A DNA stretch of 63,956 bases, counting the filler, from Chrysochromulina tobinii (Eukaryota): assembly GCA_001275005.1 (NCBI GenBank). It is 7 parts of 7 records of this genome, joined end to end, with 100 filler letters (N's around TTAATTAATTAA, not from the genome) between each part and the next. Parts side by side here need not be neighbours in the genome. Positions count along the whole stretch, not along the records: positions 1 to 6,982 come from JWZX01000534.1; 6 more parts are not named here. One strand, 5' to 3'. Positions 1 to 45,784 of this stretch are shown in pieces (within the stretch, counting starts at the first letter, position 1; every line of letters starts with the position of its first letter). A program made the translations under genes and the position numbers. The notes under the pieces were generated by a model. The model searched no databases and had not been told where the DNA came from. It worked only from the letters and a program-made list of their open reading frames with translations.

Positions 1-3000
1 CCCCCTCCCCCCTGCCCCCTCCGAAGGCCCATCGGGAGTGCGGCCGGCTCGAGCGTTGCGCTCATCACGGCGCATGCGTACCAGCAGTGACGCGAGGGAG
101 GCTGCTGTGGGATACTCGAAGAGGATCGTGGGCGGGAGCGCCGTCGTGGGCGCGAGCGCCGTCGTGGGCGGGAGCGCCGTCGTGGGCGGGAGCGCCGTCG
201 TGGGCGCGAGCGCCGTCGTGGGCGCGAGCGCCGTCGTGGGCGCGAGCGCTTGCAATCTCGCGCTCGGCGAGCTCGCGAGCGCTTGCAATCTCGAGCTGAG
301 CTCAATCGACGCGAGAGAGTCGATGCCGGCCTCCACCAGAGGCGTGTCCGCCGAGATTGCACTCTCAGCCAGGGGCGTGCCCGCGGCGGCGCTCCCGAAT
401 CGTCGGCAGAGGCGCCGGACGATGCGTAGCACCGCGCCTTCGAGATCGGCATCTGCGACCTCGAGATCGGCATCCGCGACCTCGAGATCGGCATCTGCGA
501 CCTCGAGATCGGCATCTGCGCGCCACGGCGCGTTCGGTGGCGTCGTGCTGAGCGTCGTGCGGGGGCAGATTCCGCTTCGAGATTCCCTCGGTGGACGTGG
601 CATCGTGATGAGCGAATCCCTAGTAGGACGTTCCGGCGGCTGCATCATGTGCGCCACTTCGAGGTCCAGAACTCGCAGCGCATCCTCGAAGGGGTACGGG
701 ATGCTCGGGACGGCGCCCGGGGCTGAGTGGCAGGCCCTCGACGAGAGGAGCTGCCGTTGGAGTTCGAACCACTGGCGCCGGTTGCATTCGAGGTACTCCT
801 CTGCCCGCCATCCCGCATGGCATGCCTCCGTGACGCTCTGCACGTGGCTGCGCAGCTCAGCTCGTATCTCCGGATCGGACGCGGCGGCTTGCAGCAGCGC
901 GTCGGTGGCGTCGCTCGCGCTCACGTGGTTGATGCGCACTCTTTGGAGCGTCGTCCCGGGCGTCATCACGCTCGCTACCGGCACGCCGCCTTGGCGCCAG
1001 AACCTCGTGATCATCTTCGCCGCCCAGTTGACGCCGTTGACGTGACCGATGAGAGGCAGCCCGCTCGCCCGAGCATCCAAATATGGTTCGACCATGACCC
1101 ATGTGCCGCGCCCTACCATGCCGTCCGCCCCCATCCATGCCCGGCCGAAGAGGCGCTCGTTGCCTTCGTTGACCTCGAAGCCGACGCACTTGCACACAAT
1201 GTCCGCCAGGTGGAAGCTGCCGCGGTCGGTCTCGATGCCGTCGGGACGGAAGCGTCGAGTGAGCGCGACCTCACTGTGAACGAGGCCAAGGTGATGGGCG
1301 AGAAAGTACATGTCGGACACGCTCACCGAATGCCCGTCCGGTCGGAAGCGCCCTTTGCGCCAGCACTCGGGCGGGCTGGCACCGGCAGCTTGATAGGCGC
1401 GCTGCCACTGCGCGATCACCATCCCACTGCCCTGCTTATGGTGGTCAAAGTCGGCTGTGAATGGTCGGACCAGATTGACGTAATCGAGGATCGCGGGGCA
1501 CACGAGCCCATGGCGCCGCACGAGGAACGTCACGTGGGCAGCGCCATGCTCCAAGGCCGTGCGGCACTGCTCGATGGCGTACGGCCCGTGGCCGATGATG
1601 ACGACGCGAGCGTTGGCCCACGGGAGGCCCACATTGTCGCCGCTCAGCCCGCGCACGACCGGCCCACCAAACGATCGCTCCCCTTCAAACGTGAGCTGGC
1701 GAGGCGGGCCGAGTCGGCGGTTGGTGCAGAGCAGTGCGAGCCGGTGCGCCGTCAGCGCGAAGCGCTCGGGGGACGTGTCCGCGCCTCGGCTCCGCCAGCC
1801 GCCGACGCAGACGGCGGCTTCGTCGTCGCGAGCGCGGCGCACGACCGTGACGTTCGCTCGCAGGTGCAGCTGAGCCTCGAGCTCGTACTCGACGATGAGC
1901 CGGCGGATGTCGTCGATGATCTCGTGGAAGAACGAGTGGTCCGTGTTCGGACGCTCCCGCGACACCTACCGGTATGCAAGAGGCCATCAGTGCCAACCAT
2001 GTGAGCGATTTCCGTTGAGGAGACTCGCGGGCACTCAGGAATCATCAGAGAGCCATCAGAGGGCCATCAGAGGGCCATCAGAGGGCCATCAGAGGGTCAT
2101 CAGAGGGTCATTAGAGGGTCATCAGAGACGCTATCAGAGAGGCCACCAAAGGGCCTTCGAAGAGCGTGCAGGTGCCCGGAGTGCACCTGCATGCGGTACG
2201 CGGGTTCCGTCGAGTTCACTCGGGAGTGAGGATTGCCGAAGGCGCGCCAAACTCCACCAACGGAGGGCCTCGCCTCGAGGATGGCTGCCTGCACCCCCGC
2301 GCGGCGGAGGGCAGCGGCCATGCTTAGCCCGGTGATCCCGGCGCCGATGATCACAGCTTCGCAGCTTGTGGGGAACTGGGCGACGGGGCGTGCGGCCGCG
2401 ACGGCTGCATCGAGGGCGCAGACGGCAGCATGGGCTGCGTGCACGCGCTCCGTTGTGCTCAGATGACGGGTGAGCTGCGCATTGCTCTGTGTGGCCACCA
2501 GCACGTGGTGCACCTCGCTGATCATGCTGGTGGACCAGCCCTCAAACTGGGCAGTTGCATGCGGGGGGGACGAAGGGAGGATGCACCCGACAGAGCACTG
2601 AGCACTGGACGAGGGAGCCCTGAGCACCATCGCGACGCTCGCGAGGTACTCCTCGAGCGAGATGCGCACCATGCCCGCACGAGACGCCATCATGTCAGAA
2701 GCGAGCGCCCCTATCCCTTGCTGAGCCACATTCGCCATCTGGAGGCTCGAGATGGCAAGCCCCGCCGACCGACCGATCGCACCAACGGCATCGAGGTACG
2801 AATTGGCAGCCGAGTAGGCCCCGGTGCCCCGGTACACAGCGGCGATCGCGAGCGCCGCGAGGGACGAAAGCAGCAGCCTGGCCTCGAGGCAGAGCTGCCG
2901 GCTGGCCTGATCGAGCAGGTGAGCCCCTCGTGGCTTGGGTCCCCACAGATGGTCCCTGAGCACGGCAGGCGCGGCGGCAGAGCCGAGGAGGGCCGAACCG

Positions 3001-6000
3001 AAGGCACTGGCGGCGTGAATGAAGCTCGACGGCTGTGAACAGCGACGAAGCGTCGCACAGACGTCCGCCACGTCGCTCACGTCGGCGGCGCAGATGTGCA
3101 CGACAGTGCCCCCTTGAGATTGCAGCGAGCTCAGCTGCGCCTCGAGGCCCTGTCCGGTCCGAGCCACCTGCGCACTCCGAGCACCGTACTGGGCACCACG
3201 AGCGGCGAGCAGCACGTGTGCTGCCCCTTGCTGCACAAGCAGTCTTGCCGCAGCCAGCCCGAGGCCGCCGAGGCCTCCCGAGATGACGTAACTCTGGCCG
3301 AACGAGCCCGAAGAGGCGCGGCTACCCGCCGTGCATGCAATCGGGAGTGCTCTGCGCAGCCGAGCGACTTGAGGGTGATAGCCGAAGCATGCGAGCTCCG
3401 ACTCACCCGCAACGGTGCTCGTCAGCGCTACGAGTGAGCTTGGGTGAAAGCCCAGCCCGACGTCTGCCGTGATGACGCGGAACGGAGTGGCGTGCTCGTG
3501 ACGAAACACACGCATCAAGCCCCAAGCGCCGCCGTGGGCGCAGTCCGCCAGAGCGCGAGATGCATGCAAGCTGGGGGCGGCCTGCACGCTGCGTGTCAGC
3601 ACCAACAGTGCCATCTCGCAGCGGAGGTTCTCGTAGGAAAGTAACCGTACGGCTACATGAAGCAGCAGGATGGCGCCCTCAACGGAAGGTGCCGAAGTTT
3701 CGTGACCGGTGAGAACCACGGCCACAGCGCGCCACGCACCGAGGCGCAGCGGCGATGGCGCAGCCGCCGCGCTGCCTCTCCACCCCGTATGTAGCAGCAG
3801 CAGCGGAGGTGCACTGGAGGAGGTGCTCACCAGAAGGGGGCTATGGGCCATCGCCCAGCAAGTGGCATAGGTGCTGATGCGAGCGTCTCCCGCTCCAATT
3901 GCAACTCCAATCAAGGGAGGCGGCCGCCAATGAAACGCGCGCCGAAACTGTAACGGTCGAGGTCGCGATGAATGGTATGGGGGCTGGAAGGGCGGAGGGG
4001 ATGGAGGAGCGTTCATGTGCAGCAGAACGTGCGCGATCGTGCCGCTGAAGCCGAACGAGCTCACCCCGCGCGCGCCTGTGCACGCGCTCCGCACCTCCTG
4101 CGTTGGCAGCGCCAGCCGATCGCACAATGAGCCGAGCCGCGCCCTCACCAAAGGGTTCAACAGCCGCAGGCGCGCGTTGCCACACGCACGCTGCACGCGC
4201 AACGCCTGCAGCATGCCGTGCAGACCGGAGGCCGCCTCCGAGTGGCCCACATTCGCCTTGCCGCCGCCCACCGTCGCCGCTGCCAACCGAACACCGTGCA
4301 CGGACGCGAGCGCGCCAGCCTCGGTCGGATCGCCCAAGGCCGTGCCCGTGCCGTGCAGCTCCAGACCCACCACCTCGGACGCCGTGAGCGACGCACGGCC
4401 CAGCGCGCCCGTGAGCAACGTGCGCTGCGCCGACCCATTCGGCGCCGTCAGGCTCGCCGACCGACCGTCCTGACGCACAGCGCACCCGCACAGCACCGCG
4501 ATCGATCGCGCGTCGCCGCGCGACAGCACGAGCGCGCCCACACCCTCAGAGCGCACGTACCCGTCCGCAGCCGCGTCGAGCGTCTTGCATCGGCCGCCCG
4601 CCGACAGCATCCCCGCTTGCGACGCGATCAGCGCGCCGTGCGGCGACAGCTTCAGGCTCACCGCGGCTGCGACCGCCCATCGGCACTCGCTCAAGCACAC
4701 CGCGTGCGTCGCACACTGCACCGCCACGAGCGCCGACGAGCACGCCGTGTCCACGCTCGAGCACGGACCGTGCAGGCCAAGCACGTACGACAGCCGCCCG
4801 CTCGCCACCGACACATTGTCGCCCGTCAACGCGTACGTCGTGCCGCGCACCGACGGCGGCTGCACAAGCGCCCAGTCGGGCCGCTCGATGCCCACACACA
4901 CGCCGCCGTCGCTCCCCAGCAGCGACGCACGCCGCTCGGCTGCGCCGTGCAGCGCATCGTACCCGAGCTCGAGCACCAGCCGCTGCTGCGGGTCCATCGC
5001 GCTTGCCTCCGCCTCCGACAGCCCGAACGCGCTGATGTCCAGCAGCTCGGCGCCGAGCACGAAGCCGCCGTGCGGAACGCTCGGCGCCTCGGACGTGCTC
5101 CAGCGTGTCGCCGGCACGCGTCCGATTGCATCACCGCACGCCGCCTGCAGCTGCTCGTACGCTCGCTCGCTGCTGTTGCTCCCGGGCCACCGGCTTGCCG
5201 ACCCGACCACCACTATCGCCGTCGTCGCGCCCGAGCCGGCAGGCGTGCGGGCGAGCGCGGCGGACGGCTCGGCCGCACGCCCGTGCACATGATCCGCGAT
5301 CGCACGCGCGGTCGGCTGCTCAAAGACGAGCGTCGCCGGCAGCGCCACGCCAGTGAGCGCGCGCAGCTGCATCGAGAGCTCCGTCGCTGCGAGCGAGTCG
5401 ATGCCCGCCTCCATCAGCGGCGTGTCTGCACTCAGCGCGGCGGCGGCAGTCCCGCCAGCGAGCTTGCGCACGATGGAGACAATAAATTCGTATGGGTTTT
5501 TCCAGCTGCCTGCAAAGGGGCATGGGGCCTTTATGCTCTCTGTATCCGTATTCGTGAGTCTCTCGACGACCTCCATGTGTTTGCTAAGGGGTGCGCCTCG
5601 CACCCACGGGAGCTCCGTTGTCTGACCTGCGCCATGCGGCATGCGCATCGAGAAGGCGAGGCACGCTGCGAGTTCATCAAGTGTGATCGGGTGCATCTCT
5701 CTGAGCTGCCCGTCTGAAAAGACCCTGACGCTCATCCCAGCGCCGCTCACCGCAGGAAGCTGAAGGCTGGTGCTCACAAGACCTTGCATACGACGGTACG
5801 GGGCAAGCGAGTCCATGTATGCATTGGCAGCCGCGTAGCTTGCTTGACCAGCTTTGCCCAAAAGGGACGCCACAGATGAGAAGAAGCTCGCAGCCTCCAA
5901 CGGGCTCTGGGCTGCCGATGTGTGAATGTGCCATGCAGCGCCAGACTTGGGTGCAAACACATGTCTGAAGTCGTCAGCTGGCAAGAAGCGGAGCGTCTTG

Positions 6001-6982
6001 TCCCGAAGCACACCACTTGCATGCACCACGCCAGCAACTACCACGTGGCGAAACAAGGAGACGATCTCGGCGGTGTCACCCACATCCGCTGCAACGATGT
6101 GAAGATGCTGCGCTCGGTGTTCCAATCCACTCCGCTCAGAAAGGAGCCGCGCGCTCCGTGCTACAAGCACGATGCCAGCTGCGCCCTGAACGAGAAGCGA
6201 CGTCGCGACTCGCGTCCCAAGACCACCTAATCCGCCTGTGACCACATATTGGCTACCTGGCATGTGCGCGGTGGCACTCGTTGATGCTGTCTGTGCTGCC
6301 TCCCGCAGCCGCGGCACACGGCTGCCTGACGCGTGCCATTCTGTCTCTGTTGCTGCCGTAGGAGAGTCGAGTAGCCAAGCCAAGCGCTCGGCTGCAACCT
6401 CAGACTGCCGCGACATGGCACAGCAGATGCGCATATCTACCTCGGTGCGCAGTACTCGTAAAAGTCCCCAGACGCCAGAGTGCGCTGTGCCGGCTGTTGC
6501 GCAGCTCAGGTTGGTCTCGAAGGCGCTGCGCATCAGTACGAGCACGCGAGGATGAATTTTCAAGCTCGAAGCCAACTGAATAAGTGCAAGCGTAGCGGCC
6601 ATGCCTTGTAACGAGGGTGCCAAATCGGTGCTGCCGGTGAGTATAATGGCCACCGCTTGCCACTCGCGAATACGTGCCGACTGCAGGCCTTTGCGTTGCG
6701 AATGCTGCATGCAAAGCAACCAGGAGGAGGAACACAGAACCTTGGTTTCGTGGGGATGTGGGACCCAGCATGTCGCAAAAGACCGTATGGTGCGATCGGT
6801 ATACGGGCACAAGGACGGGGCGTGCCAAAAGAATCGGAACCGGGTGTAGAGCCGCTGGGCCAGAAGAGTCCGCTCAAAAGTAGGGATGAGCGATGCGCGT
6901 AGAACGACATGCGCGATCGTGCCGCTGAAGCCAAACGAGCTCACCCCGCGCGCGCCTGTGCACGCGCTCCGCACCTCCTGCG
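1..6982 (-). CDS. Modular type I polyketide synthase fragment, AT-less: [KS end]-KR-ACP-KS-KR-flavin monooxygenase-ACP; exons 6982-2187 and 1965-<1; open at both ends
   Basis: ORF 2100..6974 shows KS end GVSSFGFSGTIAH, KR (GGLGGLG, YAAAN), ACP (GIDSLA), intact KS triad (DTACSS, HGTGT, NVGH), second KR (GGLGGLG, YSAAN), then GAGITG FAD motif. My translation from 1965 downward continues VSRERPNTDHSFFHE...VVIIGHGPYA...KCVGFE...EAGIDSLASIEL...ILFEYPT and I found no stop before base 1. No AT (GHSxG) motif seen. Confidence 0.93.
128..292. repeat. 18-bp tandem repeat (6 full + 1 partial; encodes ALAPTT/ALPPTT) plus adjacent ~20-bp duplication, inside ACP coding sequence
   Basis: GTGGGCGC/GGAGCGCCGTC units at 128-249; CGCGAGCGCTTGCAATCTCG twice at 241-293. 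Confidence 0.95.
441..519. repeat. 21-bp tandem repeat (about 4 copies; encodes ADADLEV on - strand)
   Basis: CGAGATCGGCATCTGCGACCT repeated directly upstream of the ACP. Confidence 0.95.
1966..2186 (-). other. Spliceosomal intron (221 nt, phase 0) in PKS, filled with an 11-bp CCCTCTGATGG/A tandem repeat
   Basis: CAG|GTGCAC...ACCGGTAG|GTGTCG. Removal joins PAYRMQ to VSRERP in frame. About 9 repeat copies at 2043-2140. Confidence 0.85.
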
Positions 6983-7082: not shown

Positions 7083-7365
7083 CCAGCTTGGGCGTCGGGG
7101 TCCGTCGTCGGGGGACCGAAGACAGTGACGAAGGGCGAATTTTGCATTCACAGTCCGTCTGGGCTGAGAATGAGGATTGAGCTGGCACAAACCACAATTT
7201 CCGAGAGCCCCAAGCACCCCGATGATGACCCAGGGGTTTGTGCCAGCTCAATCAGTTGTTTAAAATTAAGTCTCATCACGTTGCGAATCGACCCTTGATG
7301 ACCCTCAATCAATTCCGGAAGAGAAGTTGGTCTTGGAAGCCAATTTGCCCCGCGCTGCTCATCAC

Positions 7366-10300
7366 ATGCCCAAGAAGGGCGAGGACGCAGGCCGTCAGAA
7401 GTCGGCGCGGTCATCCAGCCCGCGGTCTGGACGGCCGACCGCGCCGGCCGCACTGGCGCCCAAGGGAGCTGCGCCAGCCAAAGCGGCACCTCAGACGTCC
7501 GCCCCGGTCTCCAAAGAGGCTACCCCGGTCCCTCGGGCGGCGATGAAGACGGTAGAGCCGAGTCCCGAGGCGGATGAGCCCTATGTCTACCCAGATGGTC
7601 GAACCTACCCCGTGGATGGTGTTTCGCTCTGCTGCCTGAAGCCAAACTACTTTCCACGGAGCTGGGCCATCGCTTTGATCAACGCTCCGTTCTTTGACTC
7701 GTTAGTCCTCCTGGTGATTACTGTCAACACCTGCTCGATGGTGTGGGAGTCTCCGTTGGACGAAGAAGGCACGTGGAAGTCGGGCATTATTGCTGTGCTT
7801 GAGGTCATATTCCTTTGGGTGTACACAGTCGAAATGTTCCTCAAAATGTTGGCATACGGCGTCATCGGCAACAAGCGTGCCTACATGCACGATCCTTGGT
7901 GTGTCCTTGACTTTATCGTCGTGAGCTGTGCGTGGGCCCCGATCCTGCTCGCGAACGTCGCACTTCCAAGCATGAATTCGCTCCGTGCGCTGCGGGCGTT
8001 CCGCGCGCTGCGCGCCATGAAGATCATCCCCGGCTTGAAGTTGATCATCGATAGCATGCTCGACGTGATTCCGAAGCTGGGGAACGTCACGGCGCTCTTC
8101 ATCTTCGTTTTTGTCGTCTTCGGCACCATCGGCATGGAGCTCTTCGAAGGCTTGCTGCACTACCGGTGCGCGTACGCAGGCTTCGAGCCGGGTGTCTCCG
8201 ACGAGGCCGACTTCGACTCCGAGGTTGCATGCAACCCCAAGGCGCCCGCGTCGGACTTTTGCGGCCAGGGCGAGACGTGTGCGTACTTCGAGTCGTTGCC
8301 GTTCTACGGGATGATGTCGTTCGACAGCGTGCCGCTGGCGATGGTGACGTTGTTGTCGGCCACCACCTGGGATACGTGGGAAACTTCCATGTTCTGCCTG
8401 ATGGACATCACGGGTAACTGGTGGTGCCTTCTGTACTATCTGGGCATCATCATCCTCGGAGGCTGCTTCGCCCGCAACCTGTTCCTGGCGGTGCTCTTCG
8501 AGGAGTTCACGCAGCTTGGCCGCGTCAACGTCGCCACCGAGAAGATGGAGAAGCGCGCCGCGGAGCTCAAGGGCGAGATCGAGGTCAAGGAGGAGAAGGT
8601 CGTCCCTACGGGCTTCCTTGCGGATTTGGCTAACTCCTCCTTGCTGTCTGGCGCGTCGATCTTGCTCGTGCTGGTCAACATGGTCCTGATGTGCATGCCA
8701 TACTATGGCATGAGCGACGAGTATGCGGCGAACCTCGAGCTCGCCGGCAGCTACATCACCTACGCCTTCGCGTTCGAGATGGGTATCAAGCTGCTCGGCC
8801 TTGGATGCGGCGGCTACTGGTCGGATGGGTGGAACTGCCTCGACGGCACGATCGTGCTCATGTCACTCAGCGAGATCCTCGTGACGCAGGTGCTCTCGTT
8901 CCTCGCGGACGGCTCGGTGCCGCAGATGTCCTTCCTCCGCATGCTGCGACTCTTGAGGGTCGCGCGCGCACTTCGTCTGATGAGGTCGTGGCAGGGGCTC
9001 TACAGTGTCGTCGCGACGCTGCTCCGGGTGGCTCCGAAGATCTCGTCCCTGTTCTGCGTGACCTTCGTCATCATGCTCGTCTTCACGCTCGCGGGCATGG
9101 AGTTCTTCGGCGGCATCTACACCGAGGACGCCGGCTACTCCGAGGTGCCCTGTCCCGGCGCCGTCTGCCCCAACCCTGACCTCGCGGAGAAGCCGTACTA
9201 CGCCAACTTCGACTACTTCTATCCTGGGATGCTCTCCGTCTTCATCCTGTTCACCGGCGAGTGGGTCGACTCTTCGCTAGCGGCGGCGTCCGTGCTCGGT
9301 CCGAAGGTGCTCTTCTACTTCATCCCGTGCATGTGCGTCGGCAGCTTCCTCGTGATGAACATCTTCATCGGCATGGTGCTCTCGGCCTTTGGCGAGGAGG
9401 ACGAGGAGGAAGAAGGAGAAGAGAAACCAGCCCCGGAGGAGCCTCCCGCGCCCGCCGCGCCCCACTCGGACCTGCGCGAGGAGATGCCCTGGCCGCAGGA
9501 GCACTCGCTCTGCCTCTTCGGCCCGCGCAACATCCTGCGCCGGGCGTGCGAAGGCATCGTCTCCAACAAGGTGTTTGAGCAGTTCATCCTGCTCATCATC
9601 CTCGCGTCGTCGTACTCCCTCGCCATCGACACTCCGCTGCTCGATCCGGAGTCGGCCACCGCGGCTCTTCTCACGCTGTCCAACTACATATTCACCGCCA
9701 TCTTTGTCTCGGAAATGCTCCTCAAGATCATCGCCTACGGCTTCGCCTTCACCGAGCGTGCCTACCTCAAGGACGGCTGGAACCAACTCGACTTCTTCAT
9801 TGTGGTCGTCTCCGTCACCGTCATCGCTGCCGAGGTCCTCGACATCCCCGCCCTCGCGCCCCTGACGTCGTTCCGCGTCCTGCGCGCGCTCCGGCCACTC
9901 CGCCTCATCGGGCGCATCGAATCGATGAAGGTCATCGTCTCCACGCTCATCCGCTCCATCCCCGCTGTCCTCAATGTGGGCATGGTCTACTTCTTCATCC
10001 AGAGCGTCTTCGCCATCCTGGGCATGCAGCTCTTCGCGGGCACCTTCGCGATGTGCCAGGAAGACCCCACGATCAAAGGCAAGCACCATTGCGAGGACCA
10101 GGGGTACCTGTGGGCCAACCCGCCGGGCAATGCGTTCGACGACTTCGGCCAGGCGAGCCTTACGCTCTTCTTGCAGACCTCGGGTGACCTCTGGGAGACG
10201 GAGATGTTCCAGGCAATGGCCGCCTCGGCCCCGGGCCATATCCCCGTGCGGAACGACTTCTCGCCCGCGGCGCTCTTTTCGATCGCGTGGATGTTCTTTG

Positions 10301-11616
10301 GCGCTTTCATCGCGCTCAACCTCTTCGTCGGTGCGATCGTCGAGACGTTCAACGCCATTTCCGCCGAGACGGGCGCGGGCTCGGCCATCATGACCGGTTC
10401 ACAGCTCCAGTGGGTGCAGACAATCAAGGTGGCTGTGCAGACGAAGCCCACCAAGGGCGTCGTGGCGCCCAGCGGCGGCTTGCGCCTGTGGGTCTTCAAC
10501 CTCGTCATGTCGATCAGCTTCGACGCCTTCATCATCGTCATCATCCTGCTCAACACCGTCTTGATGGCGTCCAAGTATTATCAGTTCGAAGAAGATGGGT
10601 GGCCGAAGACGTACTACGACTACGGCATGCGTTTCTTCACAACCGTCTACTACGTCGAGTGTGCGCTCAAGATGTTCGCCATGGGCCCCGGCGGCTACTT
10701 CTCCGTTGGCTGGAATCGTTTCGACTTCACGATTGTCTGCACCGCAGCCCTCGACGACCTGTCCGTCGACGTGTCCGCGTTCCTGCCCATCTCCCCCTTC
10801 CTTCTTCGCGTACTCCGTATTATCCGCATCGTGCGCATCCTGCGCATCCTCAAGGGAGTCAAGGGGCTCCGCGACCTCGTGACGACCGTCATCCTATCTG
10901 CCCCTCCTGTCTTCAACGTGTGCCAGCTCCTCGTCATCGTCATGTTCATCTTCTCCGTCCTGGGCATGTCCCTGTTCGGAAATATGGTCCTCCAGGACAA
11001 CGTCGAGTCTCACGCCAACTTCCAGACGGTGCCTAACGGCATGCTCCTCTTGCTGCAGACGGTCACCGGCGACGGCTGGACGCTGCTGCTCCAGGACACG
11101 AAGGTCCAAGAGTCGTCGGGCCTGTGCACGGAGGCGGAGGGCAACTGCGGCACGTGGGCCGCTATCCCCTACTTCGTTGCCTTCCAGCTCGTCGGCACCC
11201 TGGTCTTCCTCAACCTGATGATCGCCGTCATTCTCGACAACTTCACGTCGCTCTCGGAGCAAAACCCGGACCTCGTCTCGCCAACTGACGTCGACGGCTT
11301 CATGGACGCGTGGTCGGAGCTCGACCCCGAGGCGAGCAACACGCTCCCTTCGGCGCGCTTACCCGAGCTCATCATGAAGGTACCGCCGCCTCTCGGCGTC
11401 ATGGGCGATGGCGACGAGGCCGACGCCACTGCACTCGCCAAGAAGCTCAAGGTCGACGCCAAGGGTGGCGTCGTCAAGTTCGCCGACGTGCTCCTCGCCC
11501 TCTCCCTCAAACGCTACCTCGACAAGTCTGACCTGACTGAGTCGGAACTCATCAAGCTCGAGAAGGACGTGGAGCTGCAGCTCACCAAAGCGCCGGTCGA
11601 GGAGTTCACCGCGTAA
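7366..11616 (+). CDS. Four-domain voltage-gated cation channel (Cav/Nav superfamily alpha subunit), single exon
   Basis: Four 6TM repeats with S4 segments (LRALRAFRALRAMK, LRMLRLLRVARALRLMR, FRVLRALRPLRLIGR, LRVLRIIRIVRILRILK). Pore loops TTWDTW, FTGEW, TSGDLW, VTGDGW. C-terminal EF-hand-like FMDAWSELDP...PPPLG. First ATG at 7366. Confidence 0.96.
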   Translation: MPKKGEDAGRQKSARSSSPRSGRPTAPAALAPKGAAPAKAAPQTSAPVSKEATPVPRAAMKTVEPSPEADEPYVYPDGRTYPVDGVSLCCLKPNYFPRSWAIALINAPFFDSLVLLVITVNTCSMVWESPLDEEGTWKSGIIAVLEVIFLWVYTVEMFLKMLAYGVIGNKRAYMHDPWCVLDFIVVSCAWAPILLANVALPSMNSLRALRAFRALRAMKIIPGLKLIIDSMLDVIPKLGNVTALFIFVFVVFGTIGMELFEGLLHYRCAYAGFEPGVSDEADFDSEVACNPKAPASDFCGQGETCAYFESLPFYGMMSFDSVPLAMVTLLSATTWDTWETSMFCLMDITGNWWCLLYYLGIIILGGCFARNLFLAVLFEEFTQLGRVNVATEKMEKRAAELKGEIEVKEEKVVPTGFLADLANSSLLSGASILLVLVNMVLMCMPYYGMSDEYAANLELAGSYITYAFAFEMGIKLLGLGCGGYWSDGWNCLDGTIVLMSLSEILVTQVLSFLADGSVPQMSFLRMLRLLRVARALRLMRSWQGLYSVVATLLRVAPKISSLFCVTFVIMLVFTLAGMEFFGGIYTEDAGYSEVPCPGAVCPNPDLAEKPYYANFDYFYPGMLSVFILFTGEWVDSSLAAASVLGPKVLFYFIPCMCVGSFLVMNIFIGMVLSAFGEEDEEEEGEEKPAPEEPPAPAAPHSDLREEMPWPQEHSLCLFGPRNILRRACEGIVSNKVFEQFILLIILASSYSLAIDTPLLDPESATAALLTLSNYIFTAIFVSEMLLKIIAYGFAFTERAYLKDGWNQLDFFIVVVSVTVIAAEVLDIPALAPLTSFRVLRALRPLRLIGRIESMKVIVSTLIRSIPAVLNVGMVYFFIQSVFAILGMQLFAGTFAMCQEDPTIKGKHHCEDQGYLWANPPGNAFDDFGQASLTLFLQTSGDLWETEMFQAMAASAPGHIPVRNDFSPAALFSIAWMFFGAFIALNLFVGAIVETFNAISAETGAGSAIMTGSQLQWVQTIKVAVQTKPTKGVVAPSGGLRLWVFNLVMSISFDAFIIVIILLNTVLMASKYYQFEEDGWPKTYYDYGMRFFTTVYYVECALKMFAMGPGGYFSVGWNRFDFTIVCTAALDDLSVDVSAFLPISPFLLRVLRIIRIVRILRILKGVKGLRDLVTTVILSAPPVFNVCQLLVIVMFIFSVLGMSLFGNMVLQDNVESHANFQTVPNGMLLLLQTVTGDGWTLLLQDTKVQESSGLCTEAEGNCGTWAAIPYFVAFQLVGTLVFLNLMIAVILDNFTSLSEQNPDLVSPTDVDGFMDAWSELDPEASNTLPSARLPELIMKVPPPLGVMGDGDEADATALAKKLKVDAKGGVVKFADVLLALSLKRYLDKSDLTESELIKLEKDVELQLTKAPVEEFTA

Positions 11617-11780: not shown

Positions 11781-11954
11781 TCAAGTCAAGTCAAGTCAAG
11801 TCAAGTCTATACATAATACATAAACAACAGACAACCATGCAGTATTAATGCATATACGGTCCAGCCTATCGAATGTGCTCCGGAAGCCAGCAGGGGAGGA
11901 CGGGAGTCGATGGAGATGGCGGAGGGGGATCCATCTAGACTTGACTTGACTTGA
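11781..11954. repeat. Inverted (TCAAG)n arrays bounding a 174-bp segment
   Basis: (TCAAG)5-TCTA at 11781-11809 and TAGA-(CTTGA)3 at 11936-11954: 19-bp perfect inverted match. Confidence 0.85.
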
Positions 11955-12085
11955 GCGTGAATCTTGGACTCACTTCACACCCCTTCGAAACTCTTTCACA
12001 GCCAATGTTTAGAATTCGACACCCAAGACACCGGACCGGCGTACATACGGATGCGGTTAACACTAGCTTTCACACGGCGCACAAA

Positions 12086-13657
12086 ATGCTGCATGCTCGC
12101 GGCTCGGGCTCTTGGCTCGAGCTCGAGGACACGAATGTCGAAACCAAAGTTCGTACGGTGACCCCATGGTTGCAGTTGACCTTCGTGTGGTTGGTCTTTG
12201 TTGTCACGGCTGGCGTGTACCAGGTGCCTGCTACATTGCTCGGCGGCCACTGTGCCGATTCGACAGCGCCGTGCTCAATAGCCGATGAACTTGGTCTGTC
12301 CCCAGCACTGCAAGGCTGGCTGCCAGCGTCTTTCCTTCTGTGCAAAGGCCTCTTGGCGCTGCCTGCAGGCGTGGCGCTGCACGCCTATGGTCCTCGGCGC
12401 TGCCTGGTGCTCGGCATTGCCATGCTTGCCATCTCGACGGCCCTGTTCGCCGTCGCCCGCTCTTTTTACATGCTCCTGCTCCTTTATGTCGCCTTTGGCA
12501 TTTCTTACTCGCTGTCGGGCCTAGTTCCTCTTGTGGTGTTCGTGAATGGCTGGTTTTCCGCGCAGCAGAAGGCCACCTCGATCGGCCTCCTCGTCACAGC
12601 CTTTTCCGCAGCCGGCGTTTTTTGGCCGACCCTCACCGCATGGATAGCAGAGCGGCACGGCTGGCGCCAGGCCGCGGCGCTCCTGCCCTGTGCCGCAGTT
12701 GCGTTCGCGCTGCCGATAGCTCTATTCCTATTGCGGGACGGACGGGTAGCGGCCGTTGACGATGCGACGATAGAGCTCAATGCATGCAGCTCAATCGCTC
12801 ACCCAATGCATGCAGCTGTGGAATCGGGCACTGAGCTCAATGCATGCAGCTCAATCGCGAGCTCAATGCATGCAGCTGTGGAATCGGGCACTGCAGAGGT
12901 GAGCCGCGCTCACCATGGCGCCTCCATGCATGCAGCTGTGGAATCGGGCACTGCAGAGGTGAGCCGCGCTCACCATGGCGCCGTGCGCTGCGCCCGTGGT
13001 GGCTTCCATCGAGGAGCCGACTGCTTGCCCGCATGGGTGTGCGACCCAGTACTGTGGCATCTGGCGGCCATGTCCTTCGAGATCCTTTACATCATCAACG
13101 CGGTCCAGGCTCTGCTCATCCTGTTTCTCTGCAGCGAGGAGGTGGGGATGACGCTCACGAGTGCGGGCATGTACAGCAGCCTGATCTTCGCGCTCAGCCT
13201 CGTGGCCAAGATCGCCTTTGGGCCGGCGCTCGATCGGAGCTCCACTCGCCGCCCTGCTGCCCTATTCGGCTGCTCGCTCCTCGCTCTTGGCTGCGGGCTC
13301 ACGCTTCGCGTGCAGCGCGCACCGGGCGGGGGTCCCTTCGAGGTGCTCACCGCCAGCTCGCACCCGCAGCTGGTGGCCTTCAGCGTGTGCTTTGGTCTCG
13401 GATACGGCTCCAGCTTCACGCTCGTGCAGTCGCGCGCGGCCGCTCTCTACGGTCAGCTGGAGGGCTTCAGCAAGCTGCAGAGCACGCTCGCGGTCGCGCA
13501 GTATGCGGGCTCGTTTCTGGGTGTCCTCGTGACAGCGCAGCTGCGGCAGTCGACGGGCTCTTTTGTCCAGCCGTTTGGCATCCTCACACTCTTGGGGATG
13601 CTCTCGTGCGTGCACTGCTGGTTTGTGTGTTCTCCTGGAGGGCCGCGAGGACTATAG
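12086..13657 (+). CDS. Major facilitator superfamily transporter (about 12 TM)
   Basis: Two hydrophobic helix bundles, MFS-like AGVALHAYGPRR and FGPALDR motifs, central hydrophilic loop. Start uncertain (ATG 12005 or 12086). Confidence 0.85.
   Translation: MLHARGSGSWLELEDTNVETKVRTVTPWLQLTFVWLVFVVTAGVYQVPATLLGGHCADSTAPCSIADELGLSPALQGWLPASFLLCKGLLALPAGVALHAYGPRRCLVLGIAMLAISTALFAVARSFYMLLLLYVAFGISYSLSGLVPLVVFVNGWFSAQQKATSIGLLVTAFSAAGVFWPTLTAWIAERHGWRQAAALLPCAAVAFALPIALFLLRDGRVAAVDDATIELNACSSIAHPMHAAVESGTELNACSSIASSMHAAVESGTAEVSRAHHGASMHAAVESGTAEVSRAHHGAVRCARGGFHRGADCLPAWVCDPVLWHLAAMSFEILYIINAVQALLILFLCSEEVGMTLTSAGMYSSLIFALSLVAKIAFGPALDRSSTRRPAALFGCSLLALGCGLTLRVQRAPGGGPFEVLTASSHPQLVAFSVCFGLGYGSSFTLVQSRAAALYGQLEGFSKLQSTLAVAQYAGSFLGVLVTAQLRQSTGSFVQPFGILTLLGMLSCVHCWFVCSPGGPRGL
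12773..12982. repeat. Overlapping 60-bp in-frame tandem duplications in MFS central loop
   Basis: ELNACSSIA x2, MHAAVESGT x3, AEVSRAHHGA x2; 60-nt period visible in DNA. Confidence 0.9.
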
Positions 13658-20361: not shown

Positions 20362-20417
20362 CGTCCGGTACCGGTACCGGGTAAGCTGCTACGGTCCATG
20401 TTTGTGCCACATGTCCC

Positions 20418-22379
20418 ATGATGTCCCAACGGCGCGCCCAACACGGCGCCCACTGGTGCGCCCAACACGGCGCCCACTGCCCATGCCACCGCCGCGGCGG
20501 CTCTGCGGCACCCGCTCTCAACCCGAGGATAAATCCGCCTCGCGCGCGCCACTCCACGCGCACGCGTGCAGCGCGCACGGCGCTGCTCCCGTCGGAAGGC
20601 AACGACGACGAGGGTCTGGACGCCCTCCTCGACGAGGTAGCTTCACAGTCAGGAGAAACACCGCAACAACGAATGGGTCTGCTCCCCACGATTGTCTTCA
20701 TCGTCGCTTCAGCCGCCACGACCGCCTTGTACAGCGCGCTGCTCGTCGCGCTGCACTCGCTCTCCGAGAAGCACGAAGTGACCATCGGCCAGTTCGCCGC
20801 CGCCATCGGCTACGGCCTGCTGCTCGCCCTATGGGCCGGCGCAGAGGCTGGCTTCTTCGTCATGCGGATGCAGCCGCCCTACGACGCGATCGCGACGGGC
20901 GAGGAAGACTTCAACAGCGAGGCCGAGGGCGATGAGAAGCGCAGCTTCTCGGAGGGGAGCGCCGTCGGGCGTTCGGAGCAGAGCATCCTTGGCGTCAAGC
21001 CTTCGCACCTGCCCGCGCTGCGCATGAGCGCCGAGTTTGTCGCCATCATGGGGTACATATACTTTTGCGACCGCACGACCGTCGTGGGCAAGGGGCCCAA
21101 GTATCAGTCGAAGACGGCGTTCTGGGCGGTCAACTTGGCCATCCTCGCCGTGGCCGCGTGCACGCTGCGCGGCGGGCACGGCGCCGGCGGCTCCGGTCGC
21201 GGCGCGCTCTCAGACGAGCACGAGAAGCCCCTGCAGCGCGATCAGACAGAGGAGTGGAAGGGGTGGATGCAGATCATGTTCGTGCTGTACCACTACTTCA
21301 ACGAGACCGAGATCTACAACGCGATCCGCATGTACATCGCGTGCTACGTTTGGATGACCGGCTTCGGCAACTTTTCGTACTACTACGTCAAGAAGGACTT
21401 CACGGCCGTGAGATTTGCGCAGATGATGTGGAGGCTGAACTTCTTCGTCTTCTTCGTGTGCGTCACGATGAACAACGAGTACATGCTCTACTACATCTGC
21501 CCGATGCACACGTTCTTCACGTGGGGGGTCTTCATCCCGCTCTACGTGTGCCACCAGTACAATGACAACTTCACCGTGCTCTTCGTCAAGATCGGCCTCA
21601 CGCTCGGCACGGCGCTCGTCCTCTACGACGTGCCTGGCGTCTTCCACAGCGTCATGGACCCGTTCGCGTTCTTGCTCGCGTTCCACGACCCGCTGCACCC
21701 CGAGAATTCGCCGATGCACGAGTGGTTCTTCCGCTCGGGCCTGGACCACCTCGTTTGGGTCTTCGGCATGTTCTGTGCCTTTGCGTTCCCCTTCCTCGAT
21801 CGCAAGATGCGGGCGCTCGAGGAGTTGCCCACGGCGGCGCGCAACTGCGCGCGGCTCGCGCTGCTGGCCGTGACGCTCGCGGTGACCGCCTGGTGGTACT
21901 TTAGCTACTTCGCGCTGCCCAAGCGCAGTTACAATGTGGTGCACCCATACACCTCCTTCGTAGGCATCTTCACCTATCTCGTGCTACGCAACCTGACCGC
22001 CGGGCTGCGCAAGCGCCACCTGCACCTCTTCGCATGGTGCGGCAAGATCACGCTCGAGACGTATATTCTGCAGTTCCACGTGTGGATGCGCACGACCGGC
22101 CTGAACGGCTCGCCCAAGTACCTGATGGTCTGGTTCCCAGGCTCGTACTGGCTCAACTTTCTCGTCGTGACGGCCGTGTACATCTTCGTCTCGTATCGCG
22201 TCTTCATCATCACCGCCGAACTCAAGGACGTCGTCATCCCCAAGCAAGGGGGCGTGGCGCTCATCTGGCGCTCCATGCTGATCGTGGCGGTGCTCGGCGC
22301 GCTCTACTTCGTCGCCACGCTCGCCGCCCCCGCGCTCGGGGTGCCGCTGATCGCCGCAACCATCCCGAAGCCACCCTGA
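20418..22379 (+). CDS. Cas1p/CASD1/RWA-family multi-TM O-acetyltransferase (Cas1_AcylT); unrelated to CRISPR Cas1
   Basis: LQRDQTEEWKGWMQ...YHYF...IYNAIRMYIACYVWMTGFGNFSYYY, YYICPMHT, EWFFRSGLDH, GKITLETYILQFHVW. True start may be 20673. Confidence 0.93.
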   Translation: MMSQRRAQHGAHWCAQHGAHCPCHRRGGSAAPALNPRINPPRARHSTRTRAARTALLPSEGNDDEGLDALLDEVASQSGETPQQRMGLLPTIVFIVASAATTALYSALLVALHSLSEKHEVTIGQFAAAIGYGLLLALWAGAEAGFFVMRMQPPYDAIATGEEDFNSEAEGDEKRSFSEGSAVGRSEQSILGVKPSHLPALRMSAEFVAIMGYIYFCDRTTVVGKGPKYQSKTAFWAVNLAILAVAACTLRGGHGAGGSGRGALSDEHEKPLQRDQTEEWKGWMQIMFVLYHYFNETEIYNAIRMYIACYVWMTGFGNFSYYYVKKDFTAVRFAQMMWRLNFFVFFVCVTMNNEYMLYYICPMHTFFTWGVFIPLYVCHQYNDNFTVLFVKIGLTLGTALVLYDVPGVFHSVMDPFAFLLAFHDPLHPENSPMHEWFFRSGLDHLVWVFGMFCAFAFPFLDRKMRALEELPTAARNCARLALLAVTLAVTAWWYFSYFALPKRSYNVVHPYTSFVGIFTYLVLRNLTAGLRKRHLHLFAWCGKITLETYILQFHVWMRTTGLNGSPKYLMVWFPGSYWLNFLVVTAVYIFVSYRVFIITAELKDVVIPKQGGVALIWRSMLIVAVLGALYFVATLAAPALGVPLIAATIPKPP

Positions 22380-29705: not shown

Positions 29706-32700
29706 TCACGCATCGATACTCTCGATGGTCTCTTTGTCGATCACGCCGTTCAGGGCCCCTGATCCAGGACTCATGAACGAAGCCGCCTTCGCCTTACCGG
29801 CGGGCGCAGCGGCCATCGCCTCGACTTCCTTGAGCGCTGCGGCCTTGGCCGCCGCCTTTTGCTTGAGCGTCTCGTCGTTCCAGATGAGGGCTCGTTGTCC
29901 AAAGTGGAGGAAGCGTTCCTTGCTCCCGGCGCTCACAAACTCGATCGAGCCGTCGCGCGCCTTCTCCTTGGTCATCTCGCAGTGCACGAGGTACTCATCC
30001 TCGCACTGCTCCTTGAGCATCTTACGCAGCTGCTTGTACGCCTGGCCCGTCGCTGCCTTGACTGCCTTGGCCGCAGACGACGACGTGCTGGTTGCATCTT
30101 CTCCGAGGGCGCCCTCGCCCGAATACACAGCCTCAAAGGTCTTGAGCGCCTCAACCTCCGCCTTCGACACTGCCTGCGTCGGCAGTCCGGCAGCCGACGG
30201 CAGCGGCAGCCCCGCAAGGCGGCCTGCCATGGCGCAGCTCTTCACAATGTGAAGGCCGGCCGAGATGATCACACGGTTCTCGACCAGCCACTTCTTGGGC
30301 ACCTCCAGCTTGTAGCCTTCGCCATCGGGACCGCAGCGCACCGCGCAGCCGGTCACCGGGTCGAGGAAGACGAGGCGGTACTTGTCCTTTAGGAACTCCC
30401 TCTTGACGAGCTGCATGAGCTTCGAGCTCGAGGCCTGCATCGGCAGGAGCACGAAGAGGCGCGGGCAGTCGAGCTCACCCTCGGCGAGCCGGTTGAGGCT
30501 GCGCTCAAGACTCTGCATCTTGGCTTCGGTTTCCTGCATCGCCTGTTGGAACATGGCCGACTGCCGCTGCAGCATCGAACTCAGCGCGCCCGAAAGCTCG
30601 CCACCGGTACCGCCGGGCATCTGCAAACGCACCGCGTAAGCATTCTGGCGCAGCAGGCCCTGCGACGTTTCCAAGGCCGCCTTCTCCTCAGCCAGTTCTG
30701 TCAGCTCCGCAGCCGTCGTCGTCGCGTCGCCCTGTGCCGCGCCAATCTGCACGAGGGCGACGCCGAGCGTCTCCGCCTCGGATTCAGTTGAGATCAGCCG
30801 CATCGCCAGCGCCAGCTGCGACGCCTCCAGATCGGACCCCTTTGAGAGTGAGTGCTCCATCTTCTCGAGCATCGCGACGACGCCACTTCCCGCCCCCTTG
30901 CCTGCCTCTTCCCCGCCCTCTCCGCCCTCGCCGCTTCCGCCGAGGGGAGCGATGTTGCTGCCAAAGGTCGGGCGCTGCGCATAATCGGCGTGCCAGCAGC
31001 CCTCAATCAGCTTCACGATCGGCCCGGTGGTCTTGTCCCGCCACTCCTCGTCCGGGTCGGCCAGCTTCGGTCGCTCGCCCTGGGTCACTCTCTGCGGCAA
31101 CGAGGTCGCAGCCGCCAGTACCTTTGCGTACGGCTGCTCGCCACAGACGACAATCCACGCGAGGATGGAGAAGGCGTAGACGTCTGCTTCGGGCCCCACG
31201 TGCGGCGGATTTGCGAAGAGCTCGGGCGCCTTGAAGGGCAGCGTGCCACGCCCGCCCACGGTCGACTGCGACATGGAGGTCATGTTGGCAGAAGTGGAGA
31301 GCCCAAAGTCGGTGATCCATGGCACGTCGAGCGGCCCGATGAGCACATTCTCCGGCTTCAGGTCGAGGTGGATGATCTTGTGCGAGTGCACCGCCTCCAT
31401 GCCACGCGCGATGCCCGCGAGCAGCCGCACGATTGCCAAGGGTGTCTGGAACATGTGGTTGTCGAGCGCGTCCTGCAGCGTGCCGCTTGGCGCGTAGCTC
31501 ATCAGGATCATCGGTGCAGGCTCGAAGCATGCGCCGTGCAGCTTGATGACATTCGGATGGCGCACGCGCGAGAGCGCGCGCACCTCACGCCGGAGTGCCT
31601 GGTTGAACGAGTCGTGCGCCGACGTCGAGTCGAAGGCGTTCTGCTTCCCGCGGCTCTCCTTGGGCGGCCGCGGCTGCTTGATGGCGACCTCGATGCCATG
31701 CCACAAGCCGCGCACCACGACCGCCTGCCCACCCTCGCCGAGCTTCTCGAGGATCGTGATCTCGCGCGCGTCGAGCTCAAACGCCCTGAGGAGCTCCTGC
31801 GCCCGAGTCATGCGTGCCTTGGCACTGGCGCTCGCGCTCTCGGAGAGCGTGAGCGAGGTCACCATGTCAGAGGACGACGACGTGGACGAGTGCGGGTAGC
31901 TCGTACTGTCGGCGCTGCTCGACTTGGTAGGCGCGACTGCTGGCGTCACCACGATCAGCTTGCGGCGCATATTGCGGCGACGACGGTATAGGATGACCAG
32001 GGCTAGGACAAGGATGATGATGATGACCCCCGCGATGACGCCGATGATGATGCCCGTTGAGCCGCTCGTCTCCACTGCCGATGCACCGGTCGACATGGTT
32101 GACATGGGTGACATGGGTGGAGGTGACACGGGTGGAGGTGGCGATGGTGAAGGCGGCGGTGGCGGTGGGACGTCTGCGATGGTTGGCGGCGTCACGACCT
32201 CGAGCACGACGATCGAGACGCCGGTGACGTTCGCGAGCATGGCGGCCGCGCTGCTCGGGCTGCTCGTCGCGCTGGCCATCGTCGTCTGCACCGAGGTCGC
32301 GGTCGCCGTGGTCGTCTGGATGCTCACGTCGGCGATGACGCTGCCCGGCGATATAGTCAACTCGACCGCCGATGGGTCCACGCCCGCGCGAACCGCGAAT
32401 GCACTCTGCATCTGGGTCTGCACGCTCGGGGTGAATGAGGAGACGTCGCCGCCGAGCTCGAGGGTGAATCCGACCATACTCATCGCCGGCGGCGAGGGCG
32501 GCGGCGAGGGCGGCGGCGGAAAGGGCGGAGGCGGTGGCGCGCAGGGTGGGGGCGGCGGAGCCTGTGGTGCGCCCGCTGGCACCGATGGCGGCGGCGGCGA
32601 GGGCGAGGGCGGCGGCGGCGAGGGCGGCGGCGGAAGGCTGGGCGAGGGCGTAGGCGAGGGCGGCGGCGGCAAGCGCGGCGGCGGTGAGAGCAATGGCGGT

Positions 32701-33609
32701 GGCGGCGAGGGCGAGGGCGGCGGCGGCGAAGGAGGGGGTCCCAAGCAAGTTGAGATTGGCCCGAAGACGTCGGTGAGGGTCATTCCGAAAGAGCAGACGC
32801 TGGCTCCAGTGTAAATGGGGCTGACATAGACATTCGGCCCCTGCGCAGCTGTGTTTGAGTGAATGGTGCTGGCCACAAGCGCAACGCTTGTGCCTGCGCT
32901 CGAGATCAAGAAGCCGCCTCCGTTACCTCCGGCCGTGTTGGAATAGACGTGGCAAGACGTGAACGTCACGGTACTAGAGATTCCATAAGCGCCTTGGCCA
33001 CTAGAGATGTAGACGCCACCTCCACTCAAATCATTATATTCTCCATGCATTCGATTTCCGAAGATGTAGACGTTGGTGAATGTAGCAGTGCCACCAAAGA
33101 TGCAGACGCCGCCTCCCCCATACCCTGTGTTGGAGAAGATGTTGCACGAAAGGAAAGTCACGTGACCATTCCAGATATGCACCCCACCACCCCAATCGCC
33201 TACATTGGAGTAGATGTTGCACGAAATGAAGGTCACGTGACCATTCATAACCGCCACGCCGCCACCATAATCAGTGACTTCAGTGTCGTAGCCTCCCGTG
33301 ACGTTGAGCCCGTTCAGGAGTACCACACCCGACGACCCGGGGTCGATGTTCACCACCTTGCGCTGATTCGAGTAGCTCGCTTGTGCATCCAGCACGACCG
33401 AGCCTGCCACCGCCGCCTCGAGGACGACGCTCCTGGTGACGCTGAGCACGGCGCTCAGGTAGTAGGTCCCGGGGGCAAGGACGATGCGGCCGACGGCGGT
33501 GTTGGCGAGTGCACTGGTCAGGCCGGCGGCCGTGCTCACCGCCGCGGTCCCCGGCGGATGCGGTGGCGGCGAGGGAGATGGCGGCAAGCGCGGCGGCGAG
33601 GGCGGCGAG

Positions 33610-33641
<32 letters not shown>

Positions 33642-35087: not shown

Positions 35088-35171
35088 CGAAGAAGGGGCG
35101 ACGAGGCGCTAGTTGTTGCTCCAAAGCATCTTCGCTCGACTGCGAGCGCGCAATTTCGAGCCCAACACTTC

Positions 35172-45744: not shown

Positions 45745-45784
<40 letters not shown>

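Follow-up and report, generated by a model that had tools for sequence, protein, structure and literature searches.

A Candidate C2 Hydroxylase within a Polyketide Synthase: a Predicted Class B Flavoprotein Domain in a Terminal Module of Chrysochromulina tobinii

Introduction

The 63,956-nucleotide stretch of DNA from the alga Chrysochromulina tobinii analysed here (GenBank assembly GCA_001275005.1; hereafter the window) holds on its first contig, JWZX01000534.1, the minus-strand end of a modular polyketide synthase (PKS) gene. Its terminal module consists of a ketosynthase (KS), a ketoreductase (KR), a flavoprotein domain (hereafter Ox), an acyl carrier protein (ACP) and, beyond the contig edge, a thioesterase. 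Ox is predicted to adopt the paired-Rossmann fold of class B monooxygenases, the group of flavin-containing monooxygenases (FMOs) and Baeyer-Villiger monooxygenases (BVMOs), and we see an even chance that it hydroxylates C2 of the ACP-bound β-keto chain before the KR reduces C3 and the thioesterase releases a 2,3-dihydroxy product.

Results and Discussion

Architecture of the Terminal Module

The contig takes up positions 1-6982, with an N spacer starting at 6983, and reads on the minus strand as KS end-KR-ACP-KS-KR-Ox-ACP. One reading frame of this strand stays open between the contig edge and 2100, and another begins at 1965 and runs past the window start. Pfam finds the KRs (in two stretches), the KS, a PP-binding domain and the FAD Rossmann motif in the first frame; in the other it reports a PP-binding domain and, weakly, an NAD-binding one. 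Catalytic residues are kept throughout, namely Cys-His-His in the KS, Lys, Ser, Tyr and Asn in both KRs and the serine in both ACPs. No acyltransferase (AT) domain was found by Pfam in the frames of the window and of L002, a locus sharing its 3' exon, and a six-AT profile gave E values of 0.3 or worse on all five of these frames (control: 6e-41), which agrees with the AT-less modules of the original prediction. The features are as follows.

6909..6982, minus strand: C-terminal end of a KS, clipped at the contig edge; 73 bases that match the end of the KS downstream (~4029-4100) at 98.6 % identity
Upstream of the catalytic subdomain, to about 6900, minus strand: KR A, structural subdomain (motifs)
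5745..6251, minus strand: KR A, catalytic subdomain with B-type LRD motif, Tyr and Asn intact (Pfam KR and motifs)
5286..5483, minus strand: ACP 1 with GIDSL serine (Pfam PP-binding, E 3.7e-12)
4054..5444, no strand given: ACP-KS cassette, about 3-4 near-identical genomic copies (read depth, L002 comparison, RNA variant letters)
3954..5219, minus strand: elongating KS, Cys-His-His intact, no AT after it (Pfam, motifs)
About 3300-3950, minus strand: KR B, structural subdomain (Pfam and motifs)
2721..3293, minus strand: KR B, catalytic subdomain; Rossmann motif, Lys, Ser, Tyr and Asn intact, LDD motif absent (Pfam and motifs)
2187..2465, minus strand: Ox, 5' part with N-terminal helix, FAD motif and GGVW...NP....N with the putative active-site Asn (2211-2258) (Pfam, motifs)
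2328-2345, minus strand: FAD motif GAGITG (motif reading)
2247-2258, minus strand: GGVW (motif reading)
1966..2186, minus strand: phase-0 GT-AG intron, 221 nt (skipped in RNA contigs of three of four runs)
2043-2155, minus strand: 11-bp tandem repeat inside the intron, abundant elsewhere in the genome (repeat scan)
650..1965, minus strand: Ox, 3' part with NADPH Rossmann motif and helical C-terminal part (model pLDDT 80.9; Foldseek to class B monooxygenases, E 4e-12)
1639-1671, minus strand: degenerate fingerprint (motif reading)
1507-1593, minus strand: motif stretch with GHGPYA (1576-1593) and RR after it (motif reading)
440..520, minus strand: linker with in-frame 21-bp tandem repeat, copy number varying among close relatives
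106..438, minus strand: ACP 2, GIDSL serine at 307-327 (Pfam PP-binding)
126-249, minus strand: in-frame 18-bp tandem repeat interrupting ACP 2, copy number variable
1..105, minus strand: linker leaving the contig; the frame goes on into a thioesterase in L001 and L002

LDD is a motif of KR stereo-type. KR B furthermore carries a 3-residue insertion preceding its Tyr, which it has in common with the relative P0005.

The KR and the flavoprotein-ACP part are fused by splicing. The GT..AG phase-0 intron 2186-1966 is one among 15 in-frame candidates, and exactly these 221 bases, with these ends, are skipped in RNA contigs of three runs (X13, X15 and X17). Eighteen sequencing runs match the stretch, 6 of RNA and 12 of DNA, the latter being possible sources of the window; four of each kind were examined for the joint, which was seen neither in the contigs of the fourth RNA run (X14) nor in any of the four DNA runs. 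A single RNA contig (X13 record 2, 1852-2925) connects the surroundings of the KR Tyr, by way of the FAD motif, with the 3' exon; such contigs are evidence of the joint and carry no strand or RNA level. The intron-less relatives P0004, P0005, P0006 and P0014 (49-51 % identity) hold the KR and the entire Ox in one frame, and the length across the joint position in P0005 and P0006 equals that of the spliced window. RNA joints, canonical ends and intron-less relatives rule out an assembly artefact or frameshift at 1966-2186. Two separate genes, one for a KR protein and one for an FMO-ACP protein, would be suggested by the gene calls of P0001-P0003, which begin at the 3' exon, but are ruled out by the FAD motif in the 5' exon and the X13 contig spanning the joint. 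The in-line fusion behind the second KR, as originally predicted, is thus borne out, and the cDNA does not end at the intron. That the module is hidden from the track of open reading frames applies to the 3' exon, which runs off the window end, and not to the 5' exon, a plain frame of 1,600 codons. Both introns seen in the gene (window 2043-2155; L002 ~4472-4536) contain a similar short repeat, and a depth over the window intron repeat of ~100x that of unique sequence in the DNA runs marks it as common in the genome.

Two loci, L001 and L002, are 100 % identical to the 3' exon, and in both the frame passes from the ACP into a thioesterase, recognisable by its serine motif GGSWGG and by Asp and His motifs, and then ends (stop codon at L002:13400). 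A thioesterase likewise follows the ACP in P0001-P0003, and the frames next after the stop show no PKS domains by Pfam. The thioesterase and stop after the ACP in L001, L002 and P0001 make the window module a terminal one, KS-KR-flavoprotein-ACP-thioesterase. Tandem repeats vary in this region: those in ACP 2 and the linker (126-249, 440-520) differ in copy number among relatives of 90-99 % identity, and the L002 thioesterase is interrupted by comparable repeats.

Upstream, L002 agrees with the window up to 5474, with 15 base differences that all lie within 4188-5472, and diverges above 5474, where DH-DH-KR-ACP-KS-KR (DH, dehydratase) stands in place of the window's first KR. Contig depth over 4054-5444 compares as 128-188 with 38-51, and as 386-416 with 118-139, over unique parts, i.e. 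about 3-4x in all four DNA runs, an estimate from single contig records and not a copy count; RNA contigs also carry variant letters within the ACP-KS cassette. The window and L002 differ in their upstream module because this cassette is repeated. The last module is therefore secure, and the order and number of modules upstream of its KS are left ambiguous by the repeat, so that of the originally proposed order of the two modules only the final one stands: the join crosses a 3-4-copy repeat, and L002 joins another module. The L002 path adds two more upstream modules, with about 4,400 aa in view, its 5' end still open and repeats breaking the assembly. The assembly line probably comprises four modules or more, and the expectation of a longer line holds to this extent, with the window module being its end and not an internal piece. 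At L002:3-930 we also observed a tandem pair of DH-type domains ahead of a KR (Pfam PKS_DH_N, two stretches).

Predicted Fold and Motifs of the Flavoprotein Domain

Ox spans about 500 aa counted from the FAD motif and about 530 aa including the N-terminal helix, close to the predicted 550. Taken alone, the window domain scores solely via its Rossmann motifs in Pfam and sequence search; when the 3' exon was searched by itself, the PDB sequences yielded nothing meaningful, and FMOs were reached only through profiles and folds. A profile of 24 relatives (33 rows in a later version) reaches LbmA Ox-ACP, DiatB and the steroid and phenylacetone monooxygenases, the top PDB sequence match of profile A2 being 8ODW (LbmA Ox-ACP) with an E value of 7e-14 that comes partly from the ACP. 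The model of the intron-less P0006 domain (49-50 % identical to the window domain; pLDDT 89.4) matches DiatB (Z 24.4, root-mean-square deviation (rmsd) 3.7, 382 aligned), SmFMO (Z 22.4), LbmA Ox-ACP (Z 21.7, rmsd 4.2, 415 aligned) and phenylacetone monooxygenase (PAMO) and other BVMOs (Z ~20); YpdA, a related disulfide reductase, likewise scores Z 23 across 301 residues. The model of the window 3' exon has the same leading matches, and in the Atlas 10 of the 10 best matches lie in FMO-like families or their clan. No luciferase-like structure appears among the fold-search matches listed, which by itself excludes nothing. These models predict a paired-Rossmann FMO/BVMO (class B) fold, in accordance with the FMO fold expected for the domain (Z up to 24).

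Motifs were counted over 81 domains that include the N-terminus and measure 400 aa or more, near-copies being counted and shorter matches left out. The class B hallmark of two dinucleotide motifs in one chain is found: GAGITG for FAD, and GHGPYA in GxGxxA form followed by RR, of which the first Arg is kept in 80 of 81 domains. RR after the second Rossmann motif is read as NADPH-specific. Although GAGITG, GGVW and GHGPYA are present where they had been predicted, they are not accompanied by the motifs typical of FMOs or BVMOs. The fingerprint His is absent from all 81 domains; in the window an Arg stands at its position and a Gly at that of the Trp, so that neither the BVMO fingerprint FxGxxxHxxxW(P/D) nor, in the window and family domains, the FMO fingerprint FxGxxxHxxxY/F is present. 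The spacing of the second BVMO motif, [A/G]GxWxxxx[F/Y]P[G/M]xxxD, is kept in GGVW-x4-NP-x4-N, in the BVMO register of steroid monooxygenase, with Asn for F/Y, His for G/M and Asn for Asp. The last of these positions, in FMOs the place of the Asn or Gln above the flavin C4a, was assigned by a gap-free sequence comparison with steroid monooxygenase. Of the 81 domains, 70 have Asn there, 10 Gln, one Tyr and none Asp, and in 77 a Val stands ahead of it. Asn or Gln at this position marks FMOs and N-hydroxylating monooxygenases and Asp marks BVMOs, while Baeyer-Villiger-active enzymes have Leu or Ile before it (PMC10682829; motif definitions from PMC3427485 for type I BVMOs and PMC10682829 for FMOs; here and below, PMC10682829, PMC10952193, PMC6174933, PMC7586987, PMC7619045 and PMC6835853 are cited for their accessible parts). 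Judged on its sequence by published motifs, the domain fits neither the type I BVMOs nor the canonical FMOs, and by inference would work like an FMO-type enzyme.

A PKS-Fused Family

With E values of 1e-30 or better, the family profile retrieved 396 clusters formed at 50 % identity, of which the best 150 were examined. Layouts among the matches listed include KS-Ox-ACP, which lacks a KR and is the commonest of them, KS-KR-Ox-ACP, Ox-ACP-thioesterase and Ox-ACP-sulfotransferase; Symbiodiniaceae show AT-KS-ACP-MetE-like-Ox. Names among the 30 clusters looked up include Prymnesium polylepis, P. parvum, Telonema subtile, Breviolum and Effrenium, with Cladocopium coming from a separate search; one distant stand-alone protein of a bacterial metagenome-assembled genome and one protein labelled 'bacterium' (P0113, likely a mis-binned eukaryote contig) were also among these 30, and none of them bears a PKZILLA name. 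The window domain falls within a clade of KR-Ox modules with support 1.0. Named relatives, introns and AT-less modules point to a haptophyte as the likely host, the named relatives being only 28-37 % identical to the window domain. In P0004, P0014 and P0104, which form their own clade (100/100), the KR right before Ox has His for its catalytic Tyr. A single clade of all Ox-preceding KRs was considered and is unsupported (7 of 19 rows, two changes, open branches).

Some members have unusual surroundings. The dinoflagellate-type proteins P0016-P0019, P0125, P0127, P0147 and P0152 share the order AT-KS-ACP-(cobalamin-independent methionine synthase-like)-Ox in one well-supported clade, so that a MetE-like barrel adjoins an oxygenase within a PKS. 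KAL1499068.1 of P. parvum (P0260 / P0108) is a PKS of 5,756 aa with two Ox domains, 33 % identical to that of the window, the first with Gln at the active-site position and the second near the C-terminus after a condensation-like region; putative β-branching domains are also part of this PKS. Its layout is unlike the modules of PKZILLA-1 or -2 as described (bioRxiv 2024.01.29.577497).

C2 Hydroxylation before Ketoreduction and Its Alternatives

In the reaction we favour, a free-standing AT would load malonyl units and the last KS would supply a β-keto thioester on the ACP. Ox would use FAD and NADPH, as its two Rossmann motifs and the RR after the second suggest, and would hold the C4a-hydroperoxyflavin by the conserved Asn; attack of the enolisable α carbon on this species would yield the C2 hydroxyl. 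Oxygenation would come first and reduction of C3 by KR B second, upon which the thioesterase would free the 2,3-dihydroxy product. With the KR-only modules upstream, a 1,3-polyol stretch capped by a vicinal diol would result.

Several observations speak for this order of events. The KS in KS-Ox-ACP and KS-KR-Ox-ACP modules is elongating wherever complete, so that a β-keto thioester, the substrate that MupA needs (PMC10952193), is available. The residue before the catalytic Cys of the KS that follows is Thr or Ser in all seven cases after KS-Ox-ACP, and Ala after KR (17 of 17) and after KR-Ox (3 of 3); KSs of unknown context have Ala in 26 of 26. The grouping of bacterial trans-AT KSs follows the chemical moiety close to the thioester (PMC6174933), and from the pattern seen here Ox appears to alter the chain near the thioester. 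KSs after KR-Ox share a clade (0.996) with several KSs after plain KR modules, a resemblance suggesting that the KR works in KR-Ox modules and that their products look β-hydroxy. Because an oxygen inserted beside the ketone would leave the KR no substrate, C2 hydroxylation followed by C3 reduction is favoured, and it uses every domain. At curacin-type ends the sulfotransferase acts on a β-hydroxyl. The close relatives P0008 (54 % identical, also with a thioesterase) and P0021 (47 %) end in Ox-ACP-sulfotransferase, and we count this in favour of C2 hydroxylation; as a speculation, a 2-hydroxy chain and curacin-type elimination at these ends would yield an aldehyde, not an alkene. PKZILLA-1 modules with KR and flavoprotein, moreover, line up with α-hydroxyls of prymnesin (bioRxiv 2024.01.29.577497).

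A number of points weigh against this assignment. The proven α-hydroxylases, MupA and OocM, have another architecture, that of class C TIM-barrel enzymes (PMC10952193), and the class B PKS oxygenases characterised so far perform Baeyer-Villiger oxidation (OocK, LbmC-Ox), proposed oxime formation (LbmA-Ox) or remote epoxidation (SdlR); Asn is also compatible with Baeyer-Villiger activity (PMC10682829). The seven Thr/Ser KSs fall in two clades and reflect about two events, not seven, their signal may be inherited as a block with Ox-ACP, and KSs behind truncated Ox domains (n=5) divide into two with Thr/Ser and three with Ala. The sequences of P0008 and P0021 stop before any KR, and the His-for-Tyr KRs of P0004, P0014 and P0104 suggest that more than one reaction may occur within the family.

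Among the alternatives, an in-cis Baeyer-Villiger reaction would insert oxygen by the β-ketone to give an ester, and the thioesterase step would leave a shortened alcohol or acid end with KR B idle. LbmC-Ox and OocK do this on β-keto thioesters, BVMOs are among the fold matches, the GGVW spacing follows the register of steroid monooxygenase, and both the frequency of KR-less KS-Ox-ACP among the matches listed, with a distinct KS after it, and the His for KR Tyr in some KR-Ox relatives would suit it. We nevertheless regard it as unlikely for the window module, as Asn replaces Asp, both BVMO motifs are missing, the dyad has Val and not Leu or Ile, KR B is intact and KSs after KR-Ox group with those after plain KR modules. 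On-line oxygenation as originally proposed remains the likely job of Ox, with its Baeyer-Villiger variant being the less likely form. Remote alkene epoxidation as by MmpE_OR or SdlR, possibly triggering ether-ring closure and independent of the module's own KS and KR, draws on the DH-containing module upstream in L002, on class B SdlR, on the existence of in-cis epoxidases (PMC7619045) and on the fit of an FMO-type Asn with a hydroperoxyflavin. The in-cis epoxidases cited are class A, however, the downstream KS signatures indicate a change near the thioester, and P0105 and P0107 have Ox ahead of any DH, in the elongation module that directly follows a putative loading unit, which leaves epoxidation rather improbable.

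We assign a poor chance to C2 being taken on to a ketone, or to Ox acting as a flavin oxidase or dehydrogenase, in preparation for loss of C1 by carbon deletion or decarboxylative release. The family does occur in dinoflagellate PKS proteins (Effrenium, Cladocopium, Breviolum), flavin α-oxidation is a standing proposal for dinoflagellate carbon deletion (PMC6835853), and the fingerprint is unlike that of all canonical monooxygenases. Yet the KR of the window module is intact, and most of the dinoflagellate members found belong to Symbiodiniaceae, carry an AT of their own and form a separate clade. It seems very improbable that Ox has become a relic in this gene, catalytically dead or of structural use: while the fingerprint His is gone, Pfam scores are weak and a tandem repeat interrupts ACP 2, both Rossmann motifs, the Asn and RR are conserved over the 81 domains, the RNA is spliced and the frame is intact in relatives at 90-99 % identity.

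Comparison with Known Systems

As in trans-AT modular PKSs, the modules of the window and L002 are AT-less, with an intact KS triad and ACP serine in successive modules. In-cis flavin oxygenases are an established feature of bacterial trans-AT PKSs, and a survey lists 69 systems with PKS-associated flavoprotein monooxygenases. In the lobatamide trans-AT PKS of Gynuella sunshinyii, LbmA-Ox and LbmC-Ox are likewise module-integrated class B flavoproteins directly before an ACP, but they are 14-15 % identical to the window domain and keep the fingerprint His (8ODW alignment). Their modules, KS0-Ox (oxime, proposed) and a methyltransferase-containing Ox module (Baeyer-Villiger, shown), differ from KR-Ox-ACP-thioesterase as far as described in the accessible part of PMC7586987. 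MupA and OocM catalyse C2 hydroxylation of β-ketoacyl-ACP ahead of ketoreduction, the reaction proposed here, as trans-acting, two-component, reductase-dependent class C luciferase-like enzymes tied to a KS0 bimodule (PMC10952193), whereas the window domain lies in cis among elongating KSs, would have its own NADPH Rossmann domain and does not fit class C. With BVMOs (PAMO, OocK/PedG) and FMOs (DiatB, SmFMO, AncFMO) it shares the predicted paired-Rossmann fold, a BVMO-like GGxW spacing and an FMO-like Asn, although it is only 12-20 % identical, is PKS-fused and lacks both BVMO motifs and the FMO fingerprint.

The FLX domains of PKZILLA-1 from Prymnesium parvum (M6, M9, M11) resemble Ox in being flavoproteins within modules of a haptophyte-type trans-AT PKS, M6 also having a KR; FLX is a proposed α-hydroxylase, the precedents cited for it are class C luciferase-like enzymes, and there, too, internal module repeats break assemblies (bioRxiv 2024.01.29.577497). 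Unlike the window module, which is terminal with a plain thioesterase, PKZILLA-1 continues into PKZILLA-2 with its sulfotransferase-thioesterase end. Whether FLX belongs to the same family as Ox, with FLX compared by description only, is about evenly balanced; the accessible part of a 2026 paper states that the PKZILLAs lack direct characterisation. Besides PKZILLA FLX, we found no class B domain described for an algal PKS in the literature, though figures, supplements and subscription papers outside the search may hold one, and no account of the clade, motifs or spread of the window domain, algal PKS supplements and figures being outside the search. The accessible parts of PMC4661987, PMC4580454, PMC12190008, PMC12300183 and bioRxiv 2024.03.27.587007 contain no oxygenase-domain term.

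Other Genes of the Window

The next contig, unlinked to the PKS, carries an intron-free four-repeat voltage-gated cation channel of 1,448 aa (7270-11616, plus strand; Ion_trans x4). Other contigs hold ordinary eukaryotic genes:

41796-46361, plus strand: ABC1 kinase fused to a beta-lactamase-like domain
29706-35108, minus strand: C-type lectin and protein kinase
20385-22379, plus strand: Cas1-type acyltransferase
52973-56056, plus strand: kinesin
56943-59252, minus strand: phosphodiesterase
46773-48272, minus strand: PIP5K
11945-13657, plus strand: major facilitator superfamily (MFS) transporter

A bacterial origin is ruled out by the spliceosomal introns and by these eukaryotic genes.

Conclusion

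Algal polyols and polyethers bear oxygens beyond plain PKS logic, and to our knowledge no algal on-line oxygenase has been assayed so far. In-cis flavin oxygenases are already known in bacterial trans-AT PKSs and proposed in PKZILLA-1; the window offers a compact, expressed KR-Ox-ACP-thioesterase unit. It belongs to a family of several hundred clusters that is barely seen by Pfam, and its diagnostic motifs make the family annotatable across protist PKSs. We give little credence to the widest claim, that the domain represents the main on-line oxygenase of protist PKSs: a clade of class B enzymes, distinct from both BVMOs and FMOs, which carries out C2 oxidation in cis, is common to haptophytes, Telonema and dinoflagellates and provides the flavin enzyme behind dinoflagellate α-oxidation and C1 carbon deletion. 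For this deletion no enzyme had been identified as of 2019 according to the accessible part of PMC6835853, and the dinoflagellate members are a concrete candidate, as a lead only. If the domain is indeed a class B α-hydroxylase, the MupA/OocM reaction would be reached by a second route, independent in fold, and PKS engineering would gain a self-sufficient component.

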